Shown here: positions 44 through 64,000 of the stretch, piece after piece | How the letters are laid out: every line of letters begins with the position of its first letter | How positions within the stretch are numbered: position 1 is the first letter of the stretch | Origin: Dictyostelium discoideum | Taxonomy: Eukaryota | Reading direction: 5' to 3' | Length of the DNA stretch: 64,000 nt | NCBI GenBank assembly: GCA_000004695.1 | Contig: CM000151.3 | Coordinates: forward strand, 1,536,001-1,600,000 | The notes under the pieces: generated by a model | Told to the model about the DNA's origin: nothing | Databases searched by the model: none | Seen by the model: only the letters and a program-made list of their open reading frames with translations | Position numbers and translations under genes: made by a program

Positions 44-3000
44 GTTCATTAAATGCATGTTTATTAGGTTACAAATCAATTATTGATGGCGAATGTAATT
101 ATTCAATCGTATCGGGTTGTAATTTTATATTCAATCCAAATATTAGTAGAGGATTTACAACTATTAATATCATTGGTAAAAGTGGTAGATGTAAAGCATT
201 CGATGAATCAGCTGATGGTTTTGTACGTGCCGAAGGTGTTGCAGTGTTAATATTAAAAAAGTTATCGATGGCAATCAATGATGGTGATCAAATTTATTCA
301 ATCATTCGTGGTGGTAATTCAAATGTTGATGGTACATTAAATAAAGGTAATTTTATGAAACCATCAAAATCTGCACAATCAAATAATATCATTAAGGCAT
401 TTGAATCAACAAATGGATCCATTGGACCATCTGATATTGATTTCTTTGAATTACATGGTACTGGTACACCAACAGGCGATCCGATTGAAGTAGAAGCAGT
501 TTCAGATATTTTTAAGTCTGTCAAATCAAGTTCAAATCCATTATTAATTGGCTCAATTAAATCAAATATTGGTCATTTAGAACCAGCATCGGGTGTTGCA
601 TCATTAATGAAAATTTGTTTAATGTTTAAACATCGTCAGTTTATTAAAAACATTCATTTTAATAAACCAAATGGTGACATTAAATTTGAAGAATGGAAAG
701 TTAAAGTATGTACAGAGAATACACCATTCCCACAAAACAAACAAGTATCAATTGCAATCAATAGTTTTGGTATTACTGGTTCAAATGTTTGTTTGCTATT
801 AAGTGAATATACAAACCAATCTAATGAGGCATCACCATCTACATCATCAACATTATCGCATCAAAATGATATTAAATATTTAATACCAATTTCAGCAAAT
901 TCCAAAAAATCATTAGATGATATTAAAGAAGATTTAATTAATAATTCATCAGAATTATCAAAGAATTTACCATTTAAAGATTTTATTATAATCAAGTTTA
1001 TTCAAAATCAACAACATTAATCCAAAGATCAGTTATTTTTGCAAATGATTGGAATGATTTAAATTCAAATACTCAAATCATATCAACCAAAGGTAACATG
1101 TCTGGTAATATTGTAAAATCTGCAGGGGACGGTAATAACCAAAATGATCAAGATAATATTCTAGTGTATGTATTTTGTGGCCAAGGACCTCAATGGAATA
1201 AAATGGGCAATCAACTTTATAAAAATTCACCAAAATTCAAAGAAACAATGGATTTAATCGATTCAATACTTGAAAAACATTTTAAATACTCAATTCTATC
1301 AAAATTAAGATCAATCCAAGATGATGATAAAATTAGCATTAATGAACCAACAACGGCACAATCATCAATTTTAATGATTCAAATATCATTATTTGAATTA
1401 TATAAACATTGGGGTATTATACCAACAATCATCGTAGGTCATTCAATTGGTGAAATATCAGCAGCCTATTGTTCAGGTATGATTAACTTAGAAACAGCTT
1501 GTGAAATCATTTACAAAAGAAGTGTACTTCAAAAACAAACAGTTGGATTAGGTAAAATGTTAGCAATTGGATTAAATGAAAAACAATTTAAAGATCAATT
1601 TTCATCATCATTAAAATATTCAAATATCGAAATTTGTTGTTACAATTCACCATCATCAATTGTTGTTTGTGGTGATGAAATTGAATTAGAAAAAATATCA
1701 AATTCATTAAAAGAAAAACAAATATTTTCATTTTTATTAGGATCACCATCACCATACCATTCATCAAAACAAGAATTAATTAATGATCAGGTTTTAGAAT
1801 CAACCAGTAATATTAAATCAAACAAACCAAACATTCCAATATTTAGTACAGTAACAGGTGAATTATTCGAACTTGACCAAGACAATCAATTCAATTCTCA
1901 ATATATTTATGATAATATAAGAAATGCAGTATTATTTGAAAAAGCAATTGAAAACATTTTCAAATACATTGAAACAAATAATCTTGGTAAAAATATTCAA
2001 TTTTTAGAATTATCACCTCATCCAACATTATCACATTATTTAAAAGAGATGATAGCAGTAACAACGACAACAACATCAGATTACTTTCAACAACAATCAA
2101 TATCAGTTCTATCATCATTAACAAGAAATAAAAAGAATCAAAATCAAAATCAACAAAATGAAATGAATCAAATATTAAAATCAATTTCAGAATTATATTG
2201 TAATGGTTTTAATAATGTTAATTTTAAAAGTCAATTAAATGAACCAAGCAGAAATGAAACTATTGAATTTAAAAAAGCATCTTATTATTTACCACATTAT
2301 AAATTTGATGATGGAATTTATTTCACTCAATCACAATCATCATCAAATTATAAAAAGAATGGTTTTTCAACTAATCAATTAGGTATTCGTAATGAACAAT
2401 CACCATTTATATCATATACATCATTAATTGATATTGCAGAAGAACCATTTAGATTTTTAAAAGGTCACGCAGCAAAAGGTAAAGCATTATTTCCAGGTTG
2501 TGGTTATATTGATAATGTTTTAAGAGCATTCCCAAATAAAGATTTAACAATTAACAGTATGGAATTTAAATCACCATTACAACTATTTGAAGGAGTTAAA
2601 CAATGTTTAACCACAAACATTTATTCAAGTGGTAAAAATGAATACAGAGTTGTATTCAATTATAAAGATAATAAAACTGGTAAATGGATATTATCTGCCT
2701 ATGGTAGATTTACAATAAACAAACATAGTAGTGGTAGTAGTGGTAATATTAGTCAACCTAAAAAAGTTGATATTAATAAATATATTGAAAAATGCAATTA
2801 TACAAAAATTACAAAAAAAGATATTTATGAAGGTGTTAAATTAAAATTACAATTACATTTAACAGGACCATTCCAAATTATTGAAGAGGCATCATATGGT
2901 GACAGTCGTGGATTCTATAAAGTATCATTAAAGGATCCAATATCGAGTTATGACAATCAATTATTTTTAAATGTTTGTATACTTGATGCTTGTTTTCATT

Positions 3001-6000
3001 CAATGGCAACGGGTAAAGATAATCAAAATTTAACATTATTCGATAAGGTAGTGAATGGTCAGTTCTATTTCGATAATATTCCAAAATCAGCAATAGAAAG
3101 AGAACAATACCAATATTTATATTGTTATTCTAGATTAATTGCTCAAGTTGGTGATTCACTTTTCGCTAAAATTGTATTAATGTTACCAGATGGAACTGTA
3201 CTATTTAAAACACCATGTGCAGTTTACACTGAAATTAATTCAACAAATAATCAATATAAATTAGAATATCCAAATAATAATTTATATTCAATTGAAAAGC
3301 AATTAATTGATTCTCAATTAAACTCACCATTAATTCAATTTAATCAAATTATTAATTCTTTAGAAAATAATAATAATAATACATACCAATCATTAATTTT
3401 ATTTTATTTATATTCAATTATTAAAAATAATAATAATAATGATTTAACATTAGAAATAATAAATGAAAGTTCAACCGATCAATTAGTTAAAAGTTATTTT
3501 AAAATTAGTGATGATGAAAATGATATAGGAATAATTAATTTATTAAAATCAATATTTGAAATTTTAAAATCAAATATTAATACTTTATTCAAATGTAACA
3601 ATAGTGAAGTAAATAATAAATTAGAAATTAATCAAAAAGATAGTGAAACAATTAATGAATTGATCAAGTTTTTAGTGAATAATAATAAAGAACAACAAGA
3701 ACAACAATTATATACTCCTTATATAAAACAAAATGATATTATTAAAGATATTATAACAAATTCAGTTAAACCAATTTTAAATGAAAAAATTAAATTTAGA
3801 ATATTAGAGATTGGTTGTGGTATTGGTTTATTATCAGAAATCATTATCAATCAAATAAATTTATTATTTAAAGAGAATCCATTATCAGAAATTAGTATCG
3901 AATTCACTTATTCAGATTCAACATTTATACAAGCTGTTAAAGATAAAATTCAACAAATGATTCCAGAATCAACATTATTATCATTTAAAACTTTATTTAA
4001 TACAATTAATGTAAATGAAGATTTATTAGATCAAAATTTCAAACCATCTTATTATGATATTATTATTGTTAATGGTGTTAATTATTTAAATAAAGATAAA
4101 CAACTCAATTCAACAATCAACAATATTAATCAAATTTTAATTTCAAATGGTTATTTAATTATAATGGATACACATTATAAATCAAAAGTAGTCGATAAAC
4201 AAATTGAATTATATGAACAATGGTTATCATTTAATTTTAAATCAAAAAACAACAACAATAATAATAGTTTAACAAATGAACAATGGAATAATTTATTAGT
4301 TAATAAATTAAAATTTAAAGAATTCATATCAACATCATATGAACCATATTTATTAATTGTTCAAAAACCAACAATTGATGAAATCGTATTATCGACTCCA
4401 CAAAATATATCAAAGTTAATATCATCATATGATCAAATTATTAAATTTGATTCAAATTTAGGTCACAAAGATAATATAATTTCAGATATGCTAAACGATG
4501 GTAGTTTTGGTCTTTTAAGAATTACATCAATTGAAGAATTTGAAAAACATGTTGAAGCAAATCCATTGACAGATAGTTCGTTAATTCTTTTCTTTAGTTC
4601 AGTTAACGATTTAAATGAAATTAATTTTAATGAAATTACATTTGAATATATTAAAATCAACCAACATTTATTAAAAACCAAATGTAAATGTAAACATATA
4701 TTAGTTTCAAAGAATTCTCAAACATCTGCTGACGATGAAAATACATGTTCAAACTATTTAGGTACTTCAGTAATTGGTGCATTTAAATACTTTACCGAAT
4801 TTATAGATTTAAATATTTATGCAATTGATTATGGTTCAGATATTTATGAAATTAATTTAAATGATTTAATACTTCATAATGAATTAACAAATCCTTTAAA
4901 ACATATACAAAGAGAATATATTATAAGAGATAATAAAATATATTATGAATTTATAAAGTTAGAATCAAATATTAAAATGAAATATAAATCAAATTCATTC
5001 ATTCAAGATACAAATCAATTAGTATCAAAGATTGTTCCTCAAACATTAGAATTTAAATTATTAGCAAAAAGAGAATTAAAAGAAGATGAAGTCGAAGTTA
5101 AGGTTTTAGCAAGTGGTATTAATTTTAAAGACAATTTAATCTATCGTGGTTTAGTACCAAAAGAAGCAACAAATGAAATAGGTGACTCAACTGATCCACA
5201 AATTGGTTTCGAATGTTCAGGTATTATCACTAGAATTGGTAAAAAAGTAAATAAATTTAAAATTGGTGATTCAGTATTAGGTACTTGTTTTCATACAATG
5301 GCATCACATGTAAATTCAAATCAAGACAGATTTGTATTAAAACCAGATTGTTTATCATATGTCGAAGCTGCTTCAATTCCATTGGTTTATATCACATCAT
5401 ATTATTCATTATTGGTTCAAGGTGGTCTAAATTTAGAAAGAAATGATGAAGAGACTGTTTTAATTCATTCAGGTACAGGTGGTATAGGTTTAGCAGCAAT
5501 TGAAATATTAAAAGCAATTGGATTTAAATCATTATTATTCGTTACAGTTGGTTCAAAAGAAAAAGAACAATTTTTAAGAGATAGATATGGTTCATTTATA
5601 ACTGAAATTTATTCAACTAGAAACATTGACTATGTTAAAGATATAAAAAAGAAAATTAAAGAAATTAAAAAAGGTAAAGGTAAATTACTCACTCAATATG
5701 GTACATTATCATATGGAGTTGATTTAATTTTAAATACTTTATCAATTGAATTTATGGAATCAAATTTTTTACTTTTAAATCAAGGTGGTCGTATCGTTGA
5801 TTTATCAATCACCCATTTATCAACAACTGAAACAACTGATTATAATAAATTTAAATATTTCGTTGGTTATTCAACTGTTGAAGTAGTATCATTAGGTTTC
5901 TCAAAAGTTAAAGACTCACTTCAAATTGTTGTCAATATGATTAAAGATGGAAAATTAAAATTATTACCAATTATTGAATATCCAGTTAGTGAAATTAAAA

Positions 6001-8549
6001 ATGCAGTAGAGTATATTAGTGAAAGAAAACATATTGGTAAAATCGTTGTAAATTTTCAAACTACAAAAGATTTAGTACAAGATATAATTATTAAATCAAA
6101 TAATTCATTTGAAAATAATTATCTATTCCAATCACCTCAATACAATTTAAATAATACAACATTTGGTAATACTATATTAATTACTGGTCAAAAAGGATTA
6201 TCATTAACAATTATTAAATGGATATTATATTATTATCCAAATCAAGATAATAATACCAATAATAGTTTTATTAAAGATATAATAGTTTTATCAAAATCAA
6301 CAATTAATTATGAATTAGAAATTGAAATTGGAAGAGCAAGAAAAAAAGGATTAAAAACAAATATTCATTTTAAACAAGTTGATATTTCAAACAAAAATCA
6401 ATTATTCGAATCAATTGATGAATTATATAAATCAAATAAAGAATTAAAACCAATTGAAACTATATTCCATAATGCATTCGTACCAGTACAATCAGAACCT
6501 GAAGATATTGATTTACAACAATTAGTTGATTCACATGGTGCAAAAATAATTGGCGCAACCAATTTATATGATTATATTACATCAAAAGCTATGGTATTAA
6601 AGAACTATATAATTTCAGCATCAGCAACTTCTATAATGGGTTCAACAAGACAATGTGGTTATTGTTGTGCAAATGCAGTAATTGATTCATTCTCGAAATA
6701 TTTAAGAAGAAAAGGAATTCAATGTTTTTCACTAAAATATTCTCCAATTGAACAAAGTGGATATGTTGCAAGAAATGAATCTGTTGAAAAGCTATTAGCT
6801 TCAACTGGTTTAAATTCAATTTCAATTGGTACAGTTTTAGGTTCAATCGATTTAGCATTACAAAATCAAGATCAACTTAATAATAAATGTATTGTAGGTT
6901 TTGATTTCAAATTATTTTCTAAAAGACCAAATCATCTTCGATATATATTAGATTTCTACACCAATCAATATCAATCAAATAATGATGAATCTAATGATAA
7001 TGACGAATTTTCAATCAAAGATCAAATTTTAAACAAATTTTCAGAGTTATTACAAATTGAAGTTTCAAAGATTAATTTAGATATTAAAATGGTCGACTAT
7101 GGATTAGATTCATTAACAGTTGTAAATTTAAAAACATACTTGGATCAACAATTTTCATTTGGTCCAAATGTTTTATCAATTTCTCAAATTCAAAAAATTA
7201 CAATTGATCAATTATTGAATATTGTAAAAAATGAATTAAATAAAAAATCGAATTATAAAAATAATAATAATAATAAGAAATCAAATCAAAATAAACACAA
7301 ACAAATAATAGGTTCAACAATTAAGTGGGAAAATGAAATAAAATTAGATGATTCAATAATAGTAGATTTAAATGAAGATCAAATTAAAAATTATGAAAAC
7401 AATATTAATAATGAAAATGAAAATATTGTATTATTAACAGATGCAACCAGTTTTATTGGTATTTATTTATTATATGATTTAATAATTTTAGGAAATTATA
7501 AAAATGTTTATTGTTTATTAAATAATAACAATTCAAAAGAAGAAGGATTTAAAACAATCATTCAACTATTAAAAGAATACAAATTATTTGATAAATTAAC
7601 AAATGATCAAATTAATAAAATTGAAATTGTATGTGGTCACTACTCAAAAGAACAGTTTGGAATATCAAATGAAGATTATAATAACTTATCAAATCAAGTT
7701 AATATTATTTTAAATTGTGCAACTGATAGAAATTTAAATAAAAAGTATGAAGAATTTAATGAACAATTAGAAGGTATAAACCAATTTGTTAAATTTTCAT
7801 TCAATAATAAAATTAAGAAATTATTTCATTTATCAGCAATCGGGGTATACCAAGAAGATCCAAATACTGATGATGATTATTATTTACCACCATTGGAATC
7901 AATTGATAATATTAAATCTGGATATTTACAAAATAGAATTGTTCAAGAATATCGTTTAAGAAATGCAAATAAAATTCATGGATTACCAATAATGATAATT
8001 AGATTACCATTTTTATTCTCTGATGATAGTACAGGTATTGGTAGAGATAATGATGTAATTATGCTATTATTACAATCATGTTATATAATGAATACATGGC
8101 CATCAGATTTAGAGAATCAATTATTAAATTTAATACCTGTAACATTTGCAAGCAAATCAATATCATCAATTATTTCATCATTAAATGTTTGGAATCAATG
8201 CAAATCATTATCACCAATTAATAATTTAATTACATTTAATTTAGTTACAAATCAAATTTGTTTAGGTACCATTATGAATCAATTATCAAATGATCTTGGT
8301 TGGCGTAAAATTTCAACATTACAATTCATTAAAAAATTAGATATTTATGATAATGAATCTTGTAAAACATTATCATCTTTTATAAATAAAAAACTTTTCT
8401 TTAGTTTCTTATCTGTTGATGGTCAGTATAATTTTAATCAAGTTGTCAAAAATGAATTAATTTCAAATAATATATTTAATGGTTATAATGTTGATAAAAA
8501 TTCAATAATCAAACATTTAAGTTATACTTTTAAAAAGAAAATATTTTAA
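44..8549 (+). CDS. Type I iterative polyketide synthase, 3' part (5' end lies upstream of the window). Contains a 1-bp frameshift near 987, so it may be a pseudogene or carry a sequencing error
   Basis: KS C-terminal half (ELHGTGTPTGDPIE, GSIKSNIGHLEPASG) reads in frame 1 up to ~987, then continues in frame 0 to the stop at 8547-8549. Approximate domain positions: AT GHSIGEISAAYCSG ~1437; DH HAAKGKALFPGCGY ~2460; C-MeT LEIGCGIGLLSE ~3816; ER LIHSGTGGIGLAAIEIL ~5460; KR ILITGQKGLSL ~6175; ACP DYGLDSLTV ~7087; terminal NAD(P)-reductase (R) domain LLTDATSFIGIYLL ~7430-8540. The frameshift is a missing T in gattttatt(t)ataatc relative to copy 2 (11011-11030). Confidence 0.75.
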
Positions 8550-54420: not shown

Positions 54421-54512
54421 ATGAATAATAATTTAAAAAAATTATTAAGTAAAATGGAAATTTATAATAATTTTAAAATTGAAGAGAAAGATCAAGAAAT
54501 TAAAATTAAAAA

Positions 54513-54543
<31 letters not shown>

Positions 54544-57500
54544 AAAAATAATAATGATGATGAATGGTTTTGGAATGTAATTCATAATAAATTTTTATTT
54601 AATAAAATAATTCAACATTTAAAAAATAATGATGGTAATGATGATGATTATGATGATTATGATGAAGATTATAAAGATAATGAAGATGCAGAACCAAAAG
54701 GTGAAAAATCAATTGAAGATATTAATTATTTAAATAATTTTAAAGATATTTCATCATTAGAATTAATAATTGAAAAGAAACAATGGAATATTTTAAAAGA
54801 TAAAATTAAAAATAATCAATTTATTAGAATGGAGAAATCATCATTAAATATTTTATATAGTATTTGTAAAGATAAAGAAATTTTTAAATCATTATATAAT
54901 AATTCATGTTTATCAATGGAAATTGTGGATCCAGTATTTTATTCTGCAAAAAATAATAATTTAATATCATTACAATTATTCATTGAAGAATTTAATTTAC
55001 CAATTTATCCATCAACTTTAGAATTTGCGATTATCAATTCATCATTAAAAACCATACAATTCCTAATAGAATCAATTTTAAATAGAAATTTATCAATTGA
55101 TAGCTCATTTAAAGAGAGATCTTTAATTTGTAGTTTTAAAAATTATAGTAATAATTTGAAATCAGATTCAGTAATTACAGAATATTTATTGGAAAATAAA
55201 GAATTACTATTAGCAAATTCAATTGATATTATTAAAATTCCAATTGAAAAATGTTTAAAATTAAAAAAATTAAAAACTAAACAATTGTTATTTAATTATG
55301 GTTTCATTGATTTTAATCATTCAATACCAATTTTAAAAGAATGGTTAATTACAAACTATAATGTATTGTCAATATTGGATTTATGCTTTTCAATTAATAT
55401 TTTATTAAATTGTGATAAGCAATGTGTTGATCTTAAGAATGCACCACAATTCTCAAAAGTGATAGAATCTATTAGAGAAAGGGTTGAACAAGGTCCAATT
55501 ACAGATGACGAACATTCAAATTTTAATTTACTATTAAAAGGACGTTTAATTCAGTTAATTAGAGTTGACGAATTATTTTTAAAATTTTTAAATGAATTTG
55601 GTTTTGAAAAAGGTGTTCATTCATTAGCTTATTGTCCAATGGTAATGGTTTATCAATATACTTTTCAATCATTTAATATTCATGGATTAACACATTTATC
55701 TCATACACAAACTGATGTTCCTCATCCTCAATCGAATCCACATTTTAAACCAAATATGTCAACTTTAACTGACCCAAAGAGAATATTAAATTTTATTAAA
55801 TTTTATTTCAGTTCACAAAATAAGGTTATTTATAATGGTTGGGAAGAGATATCAAAATTTTGTTTGTTAAATTGTAGTATTGAGATTTTAAATGAAATTA
55901 TCGCAATCGAAGGATACCCAATTAAATCATTTCTAATTCCAGATATACAATTTAAACAATTCTCAAAATATCAATGGTTTATTGAGAGTATTGTTGTACC
56001 ATTTGGTTTGAAGTTACATAAAATGGCAATGTACAATTCTTATTTTCAAACTAATCAAGTTTCAAAAGATTATTATTATAGAGAAATTGATGAAAAGGTA
56101 TTAATATCAATTGAAAAATGTAATGAAATTGATTTCATTGATTATTACAGAAACTATTTCCAATTGGGTAATGATAACGTTTCAAATATTAAATATAAGA
56201 AATTAATTGGTGGTAATGGATTCTTTACAATTATCAACTCAATTGAGTGTGCACGTTATTGTTGTGAAAAATTTAAAACTATTCCAAAAGATTTAATTTA
56301 TTATAATTTAATTGTAAAAACAATTTTAACATCAAATATAAATAAAATGAAATCTATAGACACCTATGATAATTGTTCATTAAATTATTTTAAAGGTTAT
56401 TTCAATTTAAATTGTGGTTCAATTGGTACTGAAAATATTATAAAATTATTCAATTATTTAAATTCATCAGGATTTAAATCATTTTCAAAAATATGTGGTC
56501 TATATTACTTATTATATAGTTTAATAAAATCATATAGTATATCATATGATAATAGTAATAATAATAATCGTCATCATGATAATAATAACAATAATTCATT
56601 TGATATAGTTTATAAGATTTTTTCAAATTTATCAATTAATCAATTTCCAAAATGTTTTATGGATTTATTTATAACATTATGTTTTTCAAAATATCAAAGA
56701 GATTTAGAATTGGCTAAATTAATAATTGAAAAATTGGATTTTGATAATGTTTTAACAGTTTATCAATTTACAGATTTAAAATTCAAATTTCATAAATATT
56801 TAATAGAACAAAGTTATAGTGTTGATGATAGAAGAGAAGATGAACAATATGATATCATTTTATCAATAATTCAAATACTATTTGAAAAGGTTTCAGATGA
56901 AAATCAAAAGAATTTTCATGCACTTTATCAACATTTATATAATATTGCATTATCTTGTAAAGTGACATCATTGGATAAAATCAAAGTTTTACATAATCTT
57001 TATAATTCAAAATCAATACCTTTAAAAATCGGATTCTATCATTCATTCTTTTATTTAGATATCAAAAATACAAAATTAGGTAGATATTATTTATTCATTA
57101 GGGTTGATGGTTTAGAGAATGATACATTCGAGCATGGTATGGGATATAATGGTGATATCATTCCTTATTTTTCATTAGATGTTGAATTATGTTTTGATTA
57201 CATTTGTAATAATTCATATAAGGATATATTCTATTTGTTAAGAACTGTAATTATGGTCCAACCATTACCAGGATATAATGGCAGTGATTATTTAAATGGT
57301 ACTAAAAAATGTACAATCAATTTAATTAGTACACGTGGTAAAGTAAATCCTTCAAATGAATATTCATATGATGATAAATCATTTTGTGATCAAAAACAAG
57401 AAGAGATTCTATACAGTTTAAATCAAGATATCGAATATTTATCAACATTTTCTCAATATAATTTAGTAATTAGATTATTAAAAGACTCTATGGAAGCTAG

Positions 57501-58059
57501 TGAAATCGATTCAGAAACTTTAAAAGACCGTACTAAATCGTTCTTAATTTGTGGTATCGATTGTAAATCGTTAAGGAAAATTATTAATCTTGGTATTAAA
57601 GGTTTGGATTTTGAATTATTGGAACAATCATTCTATGAATTACGTTTAGACTTAATCGAATGTATTATGAATAATTATAGTGACTCAATTTTAAAATCTG
57701 GTAAAAGATTAAAAAATGATAAACATTTCCTTTTTCAATCAAATCATTTAGATATCATTGGATTCATATTTGAAAATTATATTCAATTAATGCCAGAATT
57801 TGATTTAACTTGGTTTGAAATATCATTTGAAAATGGTTTAATAGAAATGTGTTTATTAATTTTAATGTTTTATCCACAACAACAAATCATTATAACAAAT
57901 GACCTTTTAGAAAAAACAATTCAAAACAAAAATATTAATATTGTTAAATATTTTTATAATAATTATCCATCATTTAAATATTTAAAATTAAATATTCAAT
58001 CACTAATTAAAAAATATTATTTTTTAGATTATAAATATTTTGATTGGATTTTAAATTAA
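54421..58059 (+). CDS. Hypothetical 1212-aa protein, no recognisable domain; probably a lineage-specific orphan
   Basis: Single long ORF with AT-rich but non-repetitive codon usage. Acidic/Asn-rich N-terminus (NNDGNDDDYDDYDEDYKDNEDAEPKGE). Confidence 0.55.
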
Positions 58060-58213: not shown

Positions 58214-59207
58214 TTAAAGATGTTTACCACCAGTAACTGGGAAAATATCACCAGTACAATAGGTTGAATCACATGATGCTAAAAAGACATACATTGGTGC
58301 TACTTCAGAAGGTTGACCAGCACGACCCATTGGAGTATTTTTACCAAAAGTTGAAAGTTTGTCTTGTGGATAGCCACCAGAGATTTCAATTGGGGTCCAG
58401 ACTGGTCCTGGTGCAACAGAGTTTACTCTAATACCTCTGTGTGCAACTTGTTTGGATAAACTTTGAGTGAATGATACAATTGCACCCTTTGAAGTTGCAT
58501 AATCCAAAAGGAATGGTGAACCACTGAATGCCTCAATTGATGTGGTTGTAGTGATTGTTGAGCCCTTTGAAAGATGTGGTAAAGCAGCCTTTACAATATG
58601 GAACATTGAGAATACATTTACTTGGAAAGTTTCCATTAATTGCTCTGTGGTGATTTCAGTTATACAATTCTTGGCACATTGTTTACCAGCTACCAAAACC
58701 AATGTATCCAATCCTCCTAATCTATTCTTGGTTTCTTCAACTAAATCTTTACAGAATTTTTCACATGTCAAATCACCTTGAATCATTTCAAATTTGCCAC
58801 CACATGTAGTTGTACCACCACCACTGCCACCACCTGATGTGTTTTTAATCTCTTTCTCTAATAAACATTTGAGAGAATCAGCATCTTTCTTTTCACTTGG
58901 TAAATAAGAGATACAAACATCAGCACCTTCACGGAACATTGCAATGGTAACTGCTCTACCAATACCACTATCACCCCCAGTGACTAATACTCTTCTACCT
59001 CTTAAACGATTATTACCTTTATAGGTTTCTTCACCACCTAAAAATAATATTAAATTTAAATTTAAATTTTAGTTAATAAATAAATAAAAAAAAAAATAAA
59101 AAATTATTATTATAATTACACATACAATCTGGTACTGGATTCATTTCACTTTGAACCCCTGGTACATCTTGTTGTTGTTTTTGGAATGTTCCTTCCTTTG
59201 TTTCCAT
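58214..59207 (-). CDS. Short-chain dehydrogenase/reductase of the bacterial YghA/YhdF (GS-39, glucose/ribitol dehydrogenase-like) subfamily; complement(join(58214..59037,59126..59207))
   Basis: Exon 1 METKEGTFQKQQQDVPGVQSEMNPVPD + C (phase-1 donor GTATGT) joins exon 2 [49 protein letters not shown].... This is near-collinear with B. subtilis YhdF/YhxC ([58 protein letters not shown]). Catalytic YATSKGAIVSF (YxxxK) and C-terminal IFPVTGGKHL. Confidence 0.8.
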
Positions 59208-60578: not shown

Positions 60579-61666
60579 TCAGTCAGTGAAACCTTTCACA
60601 ACAACTTTACCCATATTTTTATTTGCTTCCAAATATTCATGAGCCTCTTTTATTTCAGAAACATTGAAAACTTTATCAACAATTGGTTTTAATTCACCAG
60701 ATTCAAATAGGGTTAAATATCTCTTTGAAAATTGAGCAACTAAATCAGCTTTATAATCATTATCACGATTTCTTAATGTTGATCCTTTAATTGTTAATCT
60801 TTTACCTAAAATTGGTGTAATATCAGCTGCTGTATCTTTAATATGTGATCCTGATAAAAATCCCTAAAAAAATTAAAAAATATTAGTAAGTGATTTATTG
60901 ATTAATTAGTTAATTGGTTGATTAAAAGTAAGTAACTACCTACTTGAATAATCATAACGCCATCCATTGAAAGTGATTTTAAATTTTGGTTCCAATATTT
61001 AGCACCAACATAATCAAATACATTGTTTACACCTTTTTTGGAGGTGACATCATTGATTACGTCTAAAAAGTTTTCATTGGTTTTATAATTGACCGAATGG
61101 GTTGCACCTAATTTTTCAATAAACTTTGCTTTTTCATCAGAACCAACAGTGCCAATGATTTTTGTTGCACCATCAACTTTACAAAGTTGGATCAATGCTG
61201 TACCAACACCACTTGCAGCAGCATGGATTAAAACGCTATTACCCGATTTGAAATTTGCTAATGGGTGTAATGCTTGGAATGCAGTTAACCAGGCTTCTGG
61301 AATCGCCGATGCCGATTCAAAAGTTAAGTGAGATGGCATGTGGAATGCTTGATTCGATGCGATTGTGCAGAACTCGCCATATGCTCCACCACCGACGAGC
61401 CCAAATACTTTATCACCGATTTTGAATCTTTTATCCTGTTTATCAGCCTCCACAACCACGCCTGACATTTCCAATCCTAAAATATCACTATCACCTGGTG
61501 GTGGTGGGTATCTACCCATTCTTTGTAAAATATCTGCTCTATTTAATGCAAAACTTTTAACATGAACTAAAATTTCATTATTCTTTGGTGTTGGTTTTGG
61601 TGCTGTTCCAATAATTAAATTTTCAATACCTCCAAATTGTTTAACTAAAATTGATCTCATTGACAT
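60579..61666 (-). CDS. Zinc-binding alcohol dehydrogenase/quinone oxidoreductase (MDR superfamily); complement(join(60579..60863,60944..61666))
   Basis: MSMRSILVKQFGGIENLIIGTAPKPTPKNNEILVHVKSFALNRADILQRMGRYPPPPG...; NAD(P)-binding AASGVGTALIQLCK. Exon 1 ends ...GVMIIQ (donor GTAGGT), acceptor tttttttag, and exon 2 continues GFLSGSHIKDTAADITPILGKRLTIKGSTLRNRDNDYKADLVAQFSKRYLTLFESGELKPIVDKVFNVSEIKEAHEYLEANKNMGKVVVKGFTD*. Confidence 0.8.
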
Positions 61667-61911: not shown

Positions 61912-61990
61912 AAAAAAAAAAAAAAAAAGCTTCTGAAGGCATTTCTATTTTTAAACAAAAATTAAAAAAGCCTTCAGAAGCTTTTTTTTT
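61912..61990. repeat. Perfect long palindrome (>=20-bp arms) in the intergenic region between the deaminase 3' end and the MDR gene 5' end
   Basis: aaaaaaaagcttctgaaggc (61921-61940) ... 29-nt A/T loop ... gccttcagaagctttttttt (61970-61989). The arms are exact reverse complements and extend into the flanking A/T runs. Confidence 0.9.
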
Positions 61991-62091
61991 TATTGATTAT
62001 GAAATCAAAAAGCAAAAAAAAAAAAAAAAAAAAGTTAAATAATAATTATCACATTGATTTTGATTGATGCTCTAAAACTAAAATTAAATCC

Positions 62092-62329: not shown

Positions 62330-63367
62330 TTAAAAATCAGAACTATCTGAAAAAATTCCATTTACTGGGCAATCTCTAGTCCATCCAGCTTGACAAAATG
62401 GTGTGGTTGAAAAAACGCTACCAGTACCACATACAGATGGAATTAATAAATCAGTTTGTGATTCTAAAACTCCACCTATTAAAACTGCATTATGATTAAT
62501 ACCATAACCTAATCTGAAAATTCTATCAGCATCCATTGGTAATTGAGTGAAACAACGCTCACAATACATATTTGAAATAAATGATCCAAAAATAACTTTT
62601 TCAAATTTAGTCCATAATAAAGCTGCTGAACACCTAAAAAAATAAAAAATATATTAATAACACTATAATTTAAAATTAAAATTAGTTATAATTATCATTG
62701 TTGAATAACTTACATTGGACATGGTTCACCTGTTGTGTACATGTAATAATCTTCCCATGTTTCTTGTTGGTATAATTGAGTACAATTAAGAATTGCTCTG
62801 ATTTCACCATGGAGGCTATAATAAAATAAAAAAATGAATTAATACAATTGATTTTTTTTTTTTTTTTTTTAAAAAATATATTTACATTCTTGAACCTTCT
62901 CCAGTATTAGCAGCTGTACACATTAAAGTTCCATTTTTATGTACAATTGCTGCACCAAATTTAGAATTATGTTCAATAGCTTTATCAAGTGCACTATTAA
63001 ATTTTTTTTTTTTTTTTTTTTTTTAAAGATATAAGTATGTTTTTTTTACAAAGAAAAAATATAATAATTTAACATACATTCTCATATATTTTTCATGGAA
63101 TTGCTTTTCAATTGATGATAAATCATTAGCATAAATAATACCATTCTAAAAATAATTTTTAAATTAACAATTATTAGTTATTTTTTTTTTTAAAACTTTT
63201 TTTTATTATTTTTTTACACATACATAAGCATTTTCAGGATCTACAGGTGGGTTATCGTAATATGGGGATTCTGGGCATTCTTCAACTTCACTACTTGTAC
63301 TTTGACTAATAGTTTCAAAAGTAAACAAAGTAATTATTAAAATAATAACAATAAATATCTTATTCAT
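62330..63367 (-). CDS. CMP/dCMP-type (CDA-fold) zinc-dependent deaminase with an N-terminal signal peptide; 5 exons: complement(join(62330..62633,62714..62815,62886..62993,63078..63145,63224..63367))
   Basis: Exon 1 MNKIFIVIILIITLFTFETISQSTSSEVEECPESPYYDNPPVDPENAY (hydrophobic signal-like N-terminus). Exon 4 carries the zinc-ligand/catalytic motif LHGEIRAILNC (HxE) and exon 4/5 the PCPMCSAA (PCxxC) motif. All four donors (GTATGT, GTATGT, GTAAAT, GTAAGT) and AG acceptors were read directly, and phases (0,2,2,2) reconstruct one continuous ORF to TAA at 62330. Confidence 0.7.
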
Positions 63368-64000
63368 TTTTTTTTTTAATTATTTATTTAATTTTATTTT
63401 ATTTTATTTTATATTGATTTGATTAACTATTATAATATTAAATTTATTTATTTTTATTATATATGTATATCTTAATTATTAGATTTTGTTTGATGGTAAT
63501 TAATGAAATTTTATAAAAAAAAAAATACTATTTATATTATTTTTTTAATAATTTAAAATTTTTTTAAAAAAAAAAAAAAACGATAAAATTATTTAAAATA
63601 AAACTATTTTATAATAATCTATTATTATTTTTTTAAATGGGCTAATTTAAGGTTTTGTTTGAGCATTACAATGATATCATTATAGCTTCTTTTATTTGAT
63701 TGGTTGTTTTAGGTATATCGTTTAATTTAAACCTTAAATCGCATTTTGTTTTAAAGACTACGTGGTTTTTTGATCCTATTTATGGCGGTTTTTATTTTAG
63801 CGTTGCATGTTCCAATTAAAAAAACTTTGAAAATCAAAATGTAAAAAATTAAAAAAAAATAAAATTAAAAATAACCAATCAAAATTTCAAAGGGTTTTTT
63901 TTTTAGCGTTTTTTATTTTTAAATTTGATTTTATAATAATCTCTCCAAATTATGATAAAAACGAAAAAAAAAAAAAATAAAAAAAAAAACTTTTTGAAAA

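Follow-up and report, generated by a model that had tools for sequence, protein, structure and literature searches.

DDB_G0272442 of Dictyostelium discoideum: a predicted exported zinc deaminase of a dictyostelid-wide TadA/GuaD-like branch

Can a deaminase with the zinc site of a cytosolic enzyme be built for work outside the cytoplasm? The question is raised by DDB_G0272442, a gene on the minus strand of a 64,000-nucleotide stretch of D. discoideum chromosome 2 (assembly GCA_000004695.1, contig CM000151.3, positions 1,536,001 to 1,600,000; hereafter the window). Its product starts with a hydrophobic segment and continues into the motifs of the cytidine deaminase (CDA) fold. The explanation favored here is that DDB_G0272442 encodes a zinc hydrolytic deaminase, predicted to be catalytically intact, from the TadA/guanine deaminase/cytosine deaminase branch of the CDA fold, and that this enzyme has been re-engineered for the secretory pathway; we hold this to be probable, with good though not complete confidence. 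The gene itself was already annotated; what appears to be new is a predicted exported, dictyostelid-wide branch of TadA/GuaD-like proteins and its standing as a candidate for an orphan enzyme of chemotaxis.

The window is poor in GC (~22%) and has long A/T runs. Joining five exons of the minus strand gives a 726-nt reading frame whose 241-aa product is 100% identical to XP_645257 (DDB_G0272442, UniProt Q559S7). The protein opens with MNKIFIVIILIITLFTFETISQS and contains both LHGEIRAILNC and EPCPMCSAA, which reproduces by splicing and translation the five-exon gene, the ~241-aa product, and the two motifs of an earlier, sequence-only reading of this stretch. The four introns (70-84 nt, 7-11% GC) start with GTA and end with AG, and the exons have 22-36% GC. 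In comparison with D. firmibasis and D. dimigraforme, exon identity is 75-91%, with a single gap of one in-frame codon in the signal peptide, and intron identity is 40-70%, with 5-26 gapped columns per intron. Every splice-site position is conserved in the three species, all of which keep the exon 1 donor GTATGT. An upstream exon with a non-signal N-terminus, which the sequence-only reading had named as a possible flaw in its proposal, is not visible in positions 63368-64000, where all three frames are closed by stops and the GC content is 4-30%, and the equivalent start methionine is used by every orthologue and paralogue.

Several new D. discoideum strain annotations (e.g., KAM9951835) carry a rival 234-aa model, in which a donor 21 nt upstream in exon 1 is used and VDPENAY is spliced out. 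Across species, the last 21 nt of exon 1 (63224-63244) show four substitutions, all of them synonymous third-position changes, and the segment has 33% GC. Because the substitutions are synonymous only and the GC content is at this level, the segment is taken as coding and the 241-aa model is preferred; the disfavored 234-aa strain models are probably mis-spliced.

The product passes the CDA profile PF00383 at 70.1 bits (cutoff 25) over residues 63-157, the classification that the sequence-only reading had called for, and 8/8 family relatives tested also pass. The closest PDB proteins by sequence are Bacillus subtilis TadA, yeast cytosine deaminase (FCY1), and B. subtilis guanine deaminase (GuaD), and the Pfam and PDB matches of the product include no amidohydrolase. 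An AlphaFold model built with 73 sequences shows the three-layer α/β/α deaminase fold with a mean predicted local distance difference test score (pLDDT) of 86.6, rising above 90 for core residues 50-220; confidence is lower for the N-terminal helix (residues 3-20) and for the linker (21-49), neither of which is joined to the core by secondary structure. In the 73-sequence alignment, His109, Glu111, Glu137, Cys139, and Cys142 are invariant. Enzymes of the CDA family use a zinc-bound water and a glutamate proton shuttle to replace an exocyclic amine hydrolytically, with release of ammonia.

Fold comparison gives the highest values for TadA (20.1) and ADAT3 (19.8), followed by plant guanosine deaminase (17.6), yeast cytosine deaminase (17.4), the RibD deaminase domain (16.3), NE0047 guanine deaminase (15.9), and Mycobacterium smegmatis Msd (15.3); APOBEC/AID proteins give 5-9 and the toxin deaminases SsdA/DddB about 5. 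Scores for TadA, GuaD, and FCY1 lie within a few bits of each other, both with profiles of the dictyostelid members only and with profiles to which bacterial relatives were added. Because these scores are nearly equal, the DDB_G0272442 protein is placed as a distinct subfamily of the TadA/GuaD/FCY1/RibD division. The Gly in the HGE motif, at a position where Ala is usual, had been thought unusual. LHGEI is also the sequence of FCY1, and HGE occurs in 24/27 family members and 38/60 bacterial relatives; it is a trait of this deaminase clade.

The characterized members of the division differ from the DDB_G0272442 product in several ways. TadA (B. subtilis 7CPH, Staphylococcus aureus 2B3J) and ADAT2 have HAE, whereas the product has HGE and reaches only 29.8 bits against the NCBIfam TadA equivalog NF008113 (cutoff 150). 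A signal peptide, eight extra cysteines, sequons, an NMYCERCF insert, and a Cys-rich tail also set it apart from these proteins. TadA and ADAT2 share a compartment with tRNA, whereas the probable location of the DDB_G0272442 protein lies outside the cytosol, where no tRNA is available. GuaD (1WKQ), Nitrosomonas europaea NE0047, Arabidopsis guanosine deaminase, and M. smegmatis Msd occur in the cytosol and have neither the disulfide nor the glycan features, and alignments with GuaD-type enzymes end before the C-terminal lid regions that set specificity, the profile alignment covering only the core (query residues 50-144); in GuaD, a C-terminal segment completes the active site of the adjacent subunit. 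FCY1 (1P6O, 1UAQ), a cytosolic protein of 158 aa, has HGE in common with the product, and its C-terminal lid, which closes over the pyrimidine, is unaligned, both phmmer and profile alignments ending near query residue 160.

Evidence for export begins at the N-terminus, where signal peptides were judged by Kyte-Doolittle hydropathy, n-region charge, and small residues at positions -3 and -1. A signal-like N-terminus is present in 31 of the 33 family proteins, the other two being a fragment and a likely mis-started model. These N-termini have a short basic n-region, an h-region with a 10-residue mean Kyte-Doolittle value of 2.7-4.1, and a small-residue c-region. The h-region of DDB_G0272442 comprises 14 residues (I4-F17, mean 3.7), preceded by Lys3 and followed by S-Q-S|T with Ser at both -3 and -1; its paralogues have cleavage-type sites of the classic AXA/VXA kind (ALA|H, VSA|H, and VFA|D). 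What is conserved in this segment is its position, not its sequence; it is nevertheless under purifying selection, with omega at 0.05-0.11 for residues 1-49. The hydrophobic run is uninterrupted, and in length it matches a signal peptide better than a membrane anchor. As the sequence-only reading had supposed, the segment thus behaves as a predicted cleavable signal peptide; for the presequence or transmembrane anchor that would have spoken against it, the run is too short to be a typical anchor and is neither amphipathic nor Arg-rich.

The mature part of the protein also has features expected outside the cytosol. Beyond the zinc ligands, eight cysteines are conserved (31, 96, 118, 165, 168, 209, 221, and 229), seven of them in 26-27/27 dictyostelid members and Cys229 in 21/27, versus 0-6/60 bacterial relatives. 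These are interpreted as structural disulfide cysteines because paralogues that have lost zinc ligands keep most of them. The sequon N117-C-[ST] is found in 27/27 dictyostelid members versus 4/60 bacterial relatives, and N91-x-[ST] in 22/27 versus 0/60. Eight members have a C-terminal hydrophobic tail (at least 12 residues, after small residues) that resembles a glycosylphosphatidylinositol (GPI) signal; they come from Cavenderia, Acytostelium, Tieghemostelium, Synstelium, and metagenomes. One eukaryote-like metagenomic relative has a WSC domain (68 bits), and a weak CBM49 match is seen in one member from Cavenderia. On these predicted architectures, the family appears to comprise soluble forms, GPI-like-tailed forms, and carbohydrate-binding-module fusions.

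Export signals extend to the bacterial relatives, at least 14/60 of which have a Sec, Tat, or lipoprotein-type N-terminal extension (~21 if weaker RR cases are included). They cluster among the best-scoring matches, and 13/14 have HGE, whereas low-scoring HAE proteins lack the extension; on this basis HGE tracks the exported sub-clade. An extracellular zinc deaminase is for this reason less unusual than had been supposed, the closest bacterial relatives having Sec/Tat signals and separate secreted AID/APOBEC-like deaminases having been described in dictyostelids (PMC5889660). Passage through the endoplasmic reticulum (ER) followed by an extracellular or luminal location is the best reading of the DDB_G0272442 protein. 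The combined indications of signal peptide, extra cysteines, sequons, GPI-like tails, WSC/CBM domains, and bacterial relatives with export signals give good inferential support to the core of the sequence-only interpretation, namely that the protein is a secreted CDA-fold deaminase.

Several points weigh against this explanation or limit it. Cleavage and secretion are predictions, and the D. discoideum paralogues lack the GPI-like tails. The DDB_G0272442 protein was not found among the rows listed of the tables of a 2026 life-cycle proteome. The similar distance to TadA, guanine deaminase, and cytosine deaminase leaves the substrate class unsettled by sequence or fold; an assignment by profile or fold ranking was tried and rejected, since the product lies almost equally far from TadA, GuaD, guanosine deaminase, and FCY1. 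Finally, an electronic, TadA-like Gene Ontology (GO) annotation puts DDB_G0272442 under GO:0034470, 'ncRNA processing' (PMC6902447, Additional file 5).

That annotation, together with TadA being the top match by sequence and structure, speaks for an ordinary cytosolic or organellar tRNA adenosine or other housekeeping deaminase, whose N-terminus would be an anchor, a presequence, or an annotation artefact. Such an enzyme is highly improbable. The score against the TadA equivalog falls far below its cutoff, and the 14-residue run has the properties of neither a typical anchor nor a presequence. The start codon, the signal peptide, and exon 1 are kept across species under the low omega given above. 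Eight conserved extra cysteines and invariant sequons would make little sense in the cytosol, and the GPI-like tails and WSC/CBM fusions of relatives point outside the cell. The GO label presumably stems from electronic TadA-like annotation, is unlikely to be right for a signal-peptide-bearing protein, and could skew GO enrichment analyses.

The putatively exported deaminase belongs to a family with a sharp boundary. An indexed protein search returns only dictyostelid proteins above 230 bits and then drops steeply, with bacterial 'nucleoside deaminases' scoring no more than 108 bits. A hidden Markov model search of 1.84 billion representative proteins gives 18 matches at E<=1e-30, all of them dictyostelid where the source is named. 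Members occur in Dictyostelium, Polysphondylium, Cavenderia, Tieghemostelium, Acytostelium, and Synstelium. Four intact paralogues are present in D. discoideum AX4, namely DDB_G0272442, DDB_G0282171, DDB_G0272030, and XP_645425; the window contains no other paralogue and no tRNA gene. No discussion of the family was found in the literature, and the gene identifiers had no match in the main texts of papers.

Catalytic residues have been lost in part of the family. A further set of paralogues, which includes P0108 (D. cf. discoideum, 429 aa), P0106, and P0110, lacks both zinc cysteines (STAEPDSLSSSA), and one member lacks the zinc histidine too. These three retain most disulfide cysteines and the N117 sequon, and P0108 also combines a signal peptide with a long, low-complexity, Ser-, Lys-, and His-rich tail. 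Zinc-less pseudo-enzymes are seen in the D. discoideum species group, and they are likely to be secreted pseudo-deaminases. The C-termini vary as well. Acidic, Ser/Asp-rich ends (SDSSDF at residues 236-241 of DDB_G0272442, and DSDSD, SDSESD, YESDSE, and TDSDDE) recur in members without a GPI-like tail (P0008, P0033, P0034, P0096, and P0107), and other group-4 paralogues terminate in RYFG[FNY]. Either type of C-terminus could act as a sorting or modification signal.

The nearest relatives outside the dictyostelids are bacterial 'nucleoside deaminases' with Sec/Tat signals (e.g., P0037, P0046, and P0050; Alphaproteobacteria, Methylocystis), which score up to 108 bits. They share with DDB_G0272442 the HGE motif, YTTGEPCPMC, and, after strand 4, an insert in which a Gln is conserved (Gln171 of the target, 43/60). 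They lack the eukaryote-type cysteines and sequons, are ~30-35% identical, and are likewise uncharacterized. The genomic contexts of three bacterial homologues (P0036, P0051, and P0061) show stand-alone genes and nothing that points to a substrate. The P0051 gene (8001-8612 of locus L002), which encodes a homologue with an export signal, adjoins genes of the zinc-starvation (Zur) regulon type at 2321-6929, which comprise two cobW/COG0523 genes, DUF1826, and the ribosomal L31 and L36 genes, and an ankyrin-repeat protein gene lies farther along the same locus. A scan of bacterial genomes for a horizontal-transfer donor gave mostly generic TadA-type genes among the matches listed, and no donor could be named.

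An exported deaminase could act on nucleic acids, and a secreted mutator or toxin directed against bacteria or competitors would resemble the SNADs, the 'dictyosteliid AADs', or the polymorphic-toxin deaminases. Secretion was described by Krishnan et al. (2018) for SNAD1-4 and for the 'dictyosteliid AADs' of three dictyostelids, and was called unique to them among eukaryotic deaminases (PMC5889660). Like the DDB_G0272442 family, these proteins have a deaminase fold, a signal peptide, and a C-terminus rich in disulfides, and dictyostelids encode some of them. The closest solved folds of the DDB_G0272442 product include the RNA-acting TadA, and PF14437 (MafB19-deam) matches it at 38.6 bits (cutoff 27). 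That match, however, covers the same residues as the stronger PF00383 match and lies beneath it, and no AID/APOBEC or SNAD Pfam model reaches its threshold in any member tested. The product has no AAD match at E<=1, and the best match among its relatives is SNAD4 with 14.5-16.9 bits (cutoff 27).

Phyletic pattern and locus also differ. Published AADs come from C. fasciculata, T. lacteum, and Acytostelium only, whereas the present family is found throughout the dictyostelids and, with D. discoideum, D. purpureum, and Polysphondylium, beyond that range. Its T. lacteum member (P0097) is encoded on LODT01000015.1 among housekeeping genes, not at the published locus on LODT01000051.1. Identity with the 'dictyosteliid AADs' was rejected on these grounds, that is, a pass of PF00383 and of no AAD model, a fold far from APOBEC, and a different T. 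lacteum contig, the two groups being set apart without the accession list of the AADs. Polymorphic-toxin deaminases (MafB19, Bd3614, DddA/SsdA) are C-terminal domains of large secreted proteins and come with an immunity gene, an arrangement not seen in DDB_G0272442, a stand-alone protein of 241 aa without toxin-delivery domains. The ratio of nonsynonymous to synonymous substitution rates (dN/dS) is ~0.10 over the whole gene and in each region, with no arms-race signature; DDB_G0272442 is thus a slowly evolving, conserved functional gene and not an arms-race effector. The nucleic-acid-targeting option of the sequence-only reading is disfavored, the fold lying nearer to TadA and the deaminases of free bases than to APOBEC or the toxins, and a mutator or toxin is very unlikely.

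For the putatively exported deaminase, the following course of events is proposed. The predicted cleavable signal peptide would bring the protein into the ER, where N117 and probably N91 would be N-glycosylated and up to four disulfides formed from the eight family-specific cysteines would lock the protein, as the conservation of these residues suggests. Release to the medium or to the endo-lysosomal lumen would follow. By the established mechanism of the family, His109, Cys139, and Cys142 would hold the zinc-bound water and Glu111 would shuttle protons, such that the exocyclic amino group of a small heterocycle (a purine, pyrimidine, or pterin-type base or nucleoside) would be swapped for oxygen and ammonia freed. 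A small-molecule substrate is favored over a nucleic acid by three features, namely kinship to deaminases of free bases and nucleosides, a compact stand-alone build, and slow evolution.

One candidate role, in line with the prey-salvage option of the sequence-only reading, is luminal or extracellular salvage of nucleobases or nucleosides from digested bacteria, or detoxification of toxic base analogues of microbial origin. Candidate substrates are guanine, guanosine, cytosine, cytidine, and analogues such as 8-azaguanine. The nearest characterized relatives act on these substrates, the exported bacterial relatives suggest ancestral scavenging outside the cytoplasm, and lysosomal enzymes of Dictyostelium are commonly secreted as well. 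Expression is also consistent with such a role. The DDB_G0272442 transcript changes on Legionella by a log2 fold change of +1.77 at 1 h (false discovery rate (FDR) 0.006) and -1.97 at 6 h (FDR 0.0009), is lower by -1.24 on E. coli than in axenic culture, and does not change with M. marinum (PMC6902447). In vegetative cells, the gene is both transcribed and regulated. Growth on bacterial food strongly raises the expression of two paralogues. Among the rows listed of a comparison of Klebsiella-grown with axenic cells, DDB_G0272030 is up 180-fold (log2 fold change 7.5, adjusted P value 6e-50) and DDB_G0282171 is up 8.6-fold. Against this role, residue-level alignments and profile scores single out no substrate class, and the bacterial contexts examined show no tie to nucleobase transport or catabolism. 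Acidic phagolysosomes are, in addition, a poor fit for zinc deaminases of this clade, whose working pH is close to neutral. Salvage or detoxification is accordingly a tentative proposal, with somewhat less than an even chance.

A more specific form of the exported-deaminase explanation, which the sequence-only reading had not considered, holds that the family represents the dictyostelid extracellular and cell-surface folate/pterin deaminases, with DDB_G0272442 as one isozyme. DDB_G0272442 and its three intact paralogues would then be isozymes that differ in specificity or timing. Extracellular folate/pterin deaminases were first described in about 1978-1981. The 2-amino-4-oxo ring of pterins is the moiety that CDA-fold guanine deaminase and RibD deaminate, and both are structural neighbors of the DDB_G0272442 product. 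The dictyostelid folate deaminase is reported to be a secreted and cell-surface enzyme of ~40 kDa that converts the bacterial chemoattractant folate to inactive 2-deaminofolate and underlies self-generated gradients (PMC4794234). Known only from biochemistry, it was 'yet to be cloned' in a 2021 review (PMC8616412), and no later report of its cloning was found in the literature.

The correspondence between this enzyme and the family has several parts. The enzyme is secreted and surface-bound, and the family has soluble and GPI-like-tailed forms. Mature monomers have masses of 22.8-24.3 kDa and putative dimers, dimers being typical of the clade, 46-49 kDa before glycans, which is not far from the ~40 kDa cited (PMC4794234). 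Pterin/folate deaminase activity has been reported from D. discoideum, P. violaceum, and D. lacteum (PMC13197243), and members of the family are present in all three, a circumstantial match. The confinement of the family to dictyostelids and the induction of two paralogues by bacterial growth point the same way.

All of this support is circumstantial, and other observations run counter to it. Every gene-assigned pterin deaminase belongs to the amidohydrolase superfamily and not to the CDA fold; the Arad3529-type enzyme, which deaminates folate and pterins, has a TIM-barrel amidohydrolase fold unrelated to that of DDB_G0272442. ADGF/ADA2, a secreted deaminase that controls an extracellular signaling molecule, is likewise a functional analogue on the TIM-barrel amidohydrolase fold, unrelated to the CDA fold of DDB_G0272442. 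The absence of GPI-like tails from the D. discoideum paralogues leaves the membrane-bound activity of that species unexplained. In the rows listed of the life-cycle proteome (mass spectrometry), DDB_G0272030 is seen only at culmination and in the fruiting body and DDB_G0282171 only in fruiting bodies, not in vegetative cells, though a secreted protein would wash off vegetative pellets. The DDB_G0272442 transcript is, moreover, slightly lower on E. coli than in axenic culture.

The genomic neighbor does not help this case either. The gene divergent from the deaminase is grlJ (XP_645258), which lies just past the right end of the window (2948-5643 of the D. discoideum strain contig L091) and shares ~1.35 kb of intergenic DNA with it. 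The divergent deaminase-Grl arrangement is kept in D. firmibasis (L090, 1934-4667), and a search with the D. firmibasis Grl fragment found one paralogue only. A folate receptor at this position was considered and rejected: the reconstructed protein is GrlJ, an orphan family-3 G protein-coupled receptor with a Bmp/PnrA-like ectodomain, and not GrlL/fAR1, and grlJ-null cells respond normally to folate (PMC1885808). On balance, folate or pterin deamination by this family is possible but rather unlikely. Salvage or detoxification is at least as likely, and the remaining probability lies with unanticipated substrates.

On the other side of the deaminase gene, the order of the deaminase, the ADH_zinc_N-like gene, and the short-chain dehydrogenase-like gene is syntenic in D. 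firmibasis, and the ADH_zinc_N-like gene also adjoins the deaminase in D. dimigraforme. Between the deaminase stop and the start of the next minus-strand gene, the intergenic positions 61918-61991 hold a perfect 13-bp inverted repeat, AGCTTCTGAAGGC ... GCCTTCAGAAGCT, with a loop of ~30 nt and flanks of an A-run and a T-run. A scan of this repeat against Rfam returned only sub-threshold generic-hairpin matches (mir-980, 28.6 bits versus a gathering score of 47). The coordinates of the gene and its neighbors are collected in Table 1.

Table 1. Features of DDB_G0272442 and of neighboring genes, in positions of the window
Feature	Position	Strand	Description
Exon 1	63224..63367	-	144 nt; start codon 63367-63365; signal peptide and N-terminal linker with conserved CPxSP motif (Cys31)
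Predicted cleavable signal peptide, residues 1-23 (MNKIFIVIILIITLFTFETISQS)	63299..63367	-	Predicted from residue pattern
Intron 1	63146..63223	-	78 nt, GT..AG, 9% GC; splice sites kept across species
Exon 2	63078..63145	-	68 nt
Intron 2	62994..63077	-	84 nt, GT..AG, 10% GC
Exon 3	62886..62993	-	108 nt; first core beta strands, N91-G-T sequon, Cys96, substrate-pocket Asn100
Intron 3	62816..62885	-	70 nt, GT..AG, 7% GC
Exon 4	62714..62815	-	102 nt; H109-G110-E111 (62811-62803), N117-C118-T119 sequon, E137-P138-C139 (zinc ligand Cys139, 62721-62719)
Intron 4	62634..62713	-	80 nt, GT..AG, 11% GC; interrupts the PCPMC motif inside the Met141 codon
Exon 5	62330..62633	-	304 nt including TAA stop 62332-62330; zinc ligand Cys142, family-specific NMYCERCF insert (Cys165, Cys168)
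Exon 5, distal part		-	Final strand and helix of the core; C-terminal tail rich in Cys (Cys209, Cys221, Cys229), acidic end SDSSDF
Asn-rich open reading frame	54421-58059	+	1212 aa, function unassigned
Short-chain dehydrogenase-like gene	58214-58939	-	
Quinone-oxidoreductase/ADH_zinc_N-like gene	60902-61666	-	

Deaminases of the TadA, GuaD, and FCY1 type are seen as cytosolic housekeeping enzymes, and the branch described here appears to be fitted as a whole to life outside the cytoplasm. Its predicted export qualifies the published claim that AID/APOBEC-like proteins are the only secreted eukaryotic deaminases. If the folate/pterin proposal were true, the family would provide the first pterin deaminase on a CDA fold instead of an amidohydrolase fold. 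The four named D. discoideum genes are candidates for the orphan folate deaminase in the self-generated-gradient model of chemotaxis, an enzyme that, being uncloned, could be neither knocked out nor tuned. Even if folate is not the substrate, a bacteria-induced extracellular deaminase would imply an unrecognized step in how amoebae process or sense bacterial metabolites.

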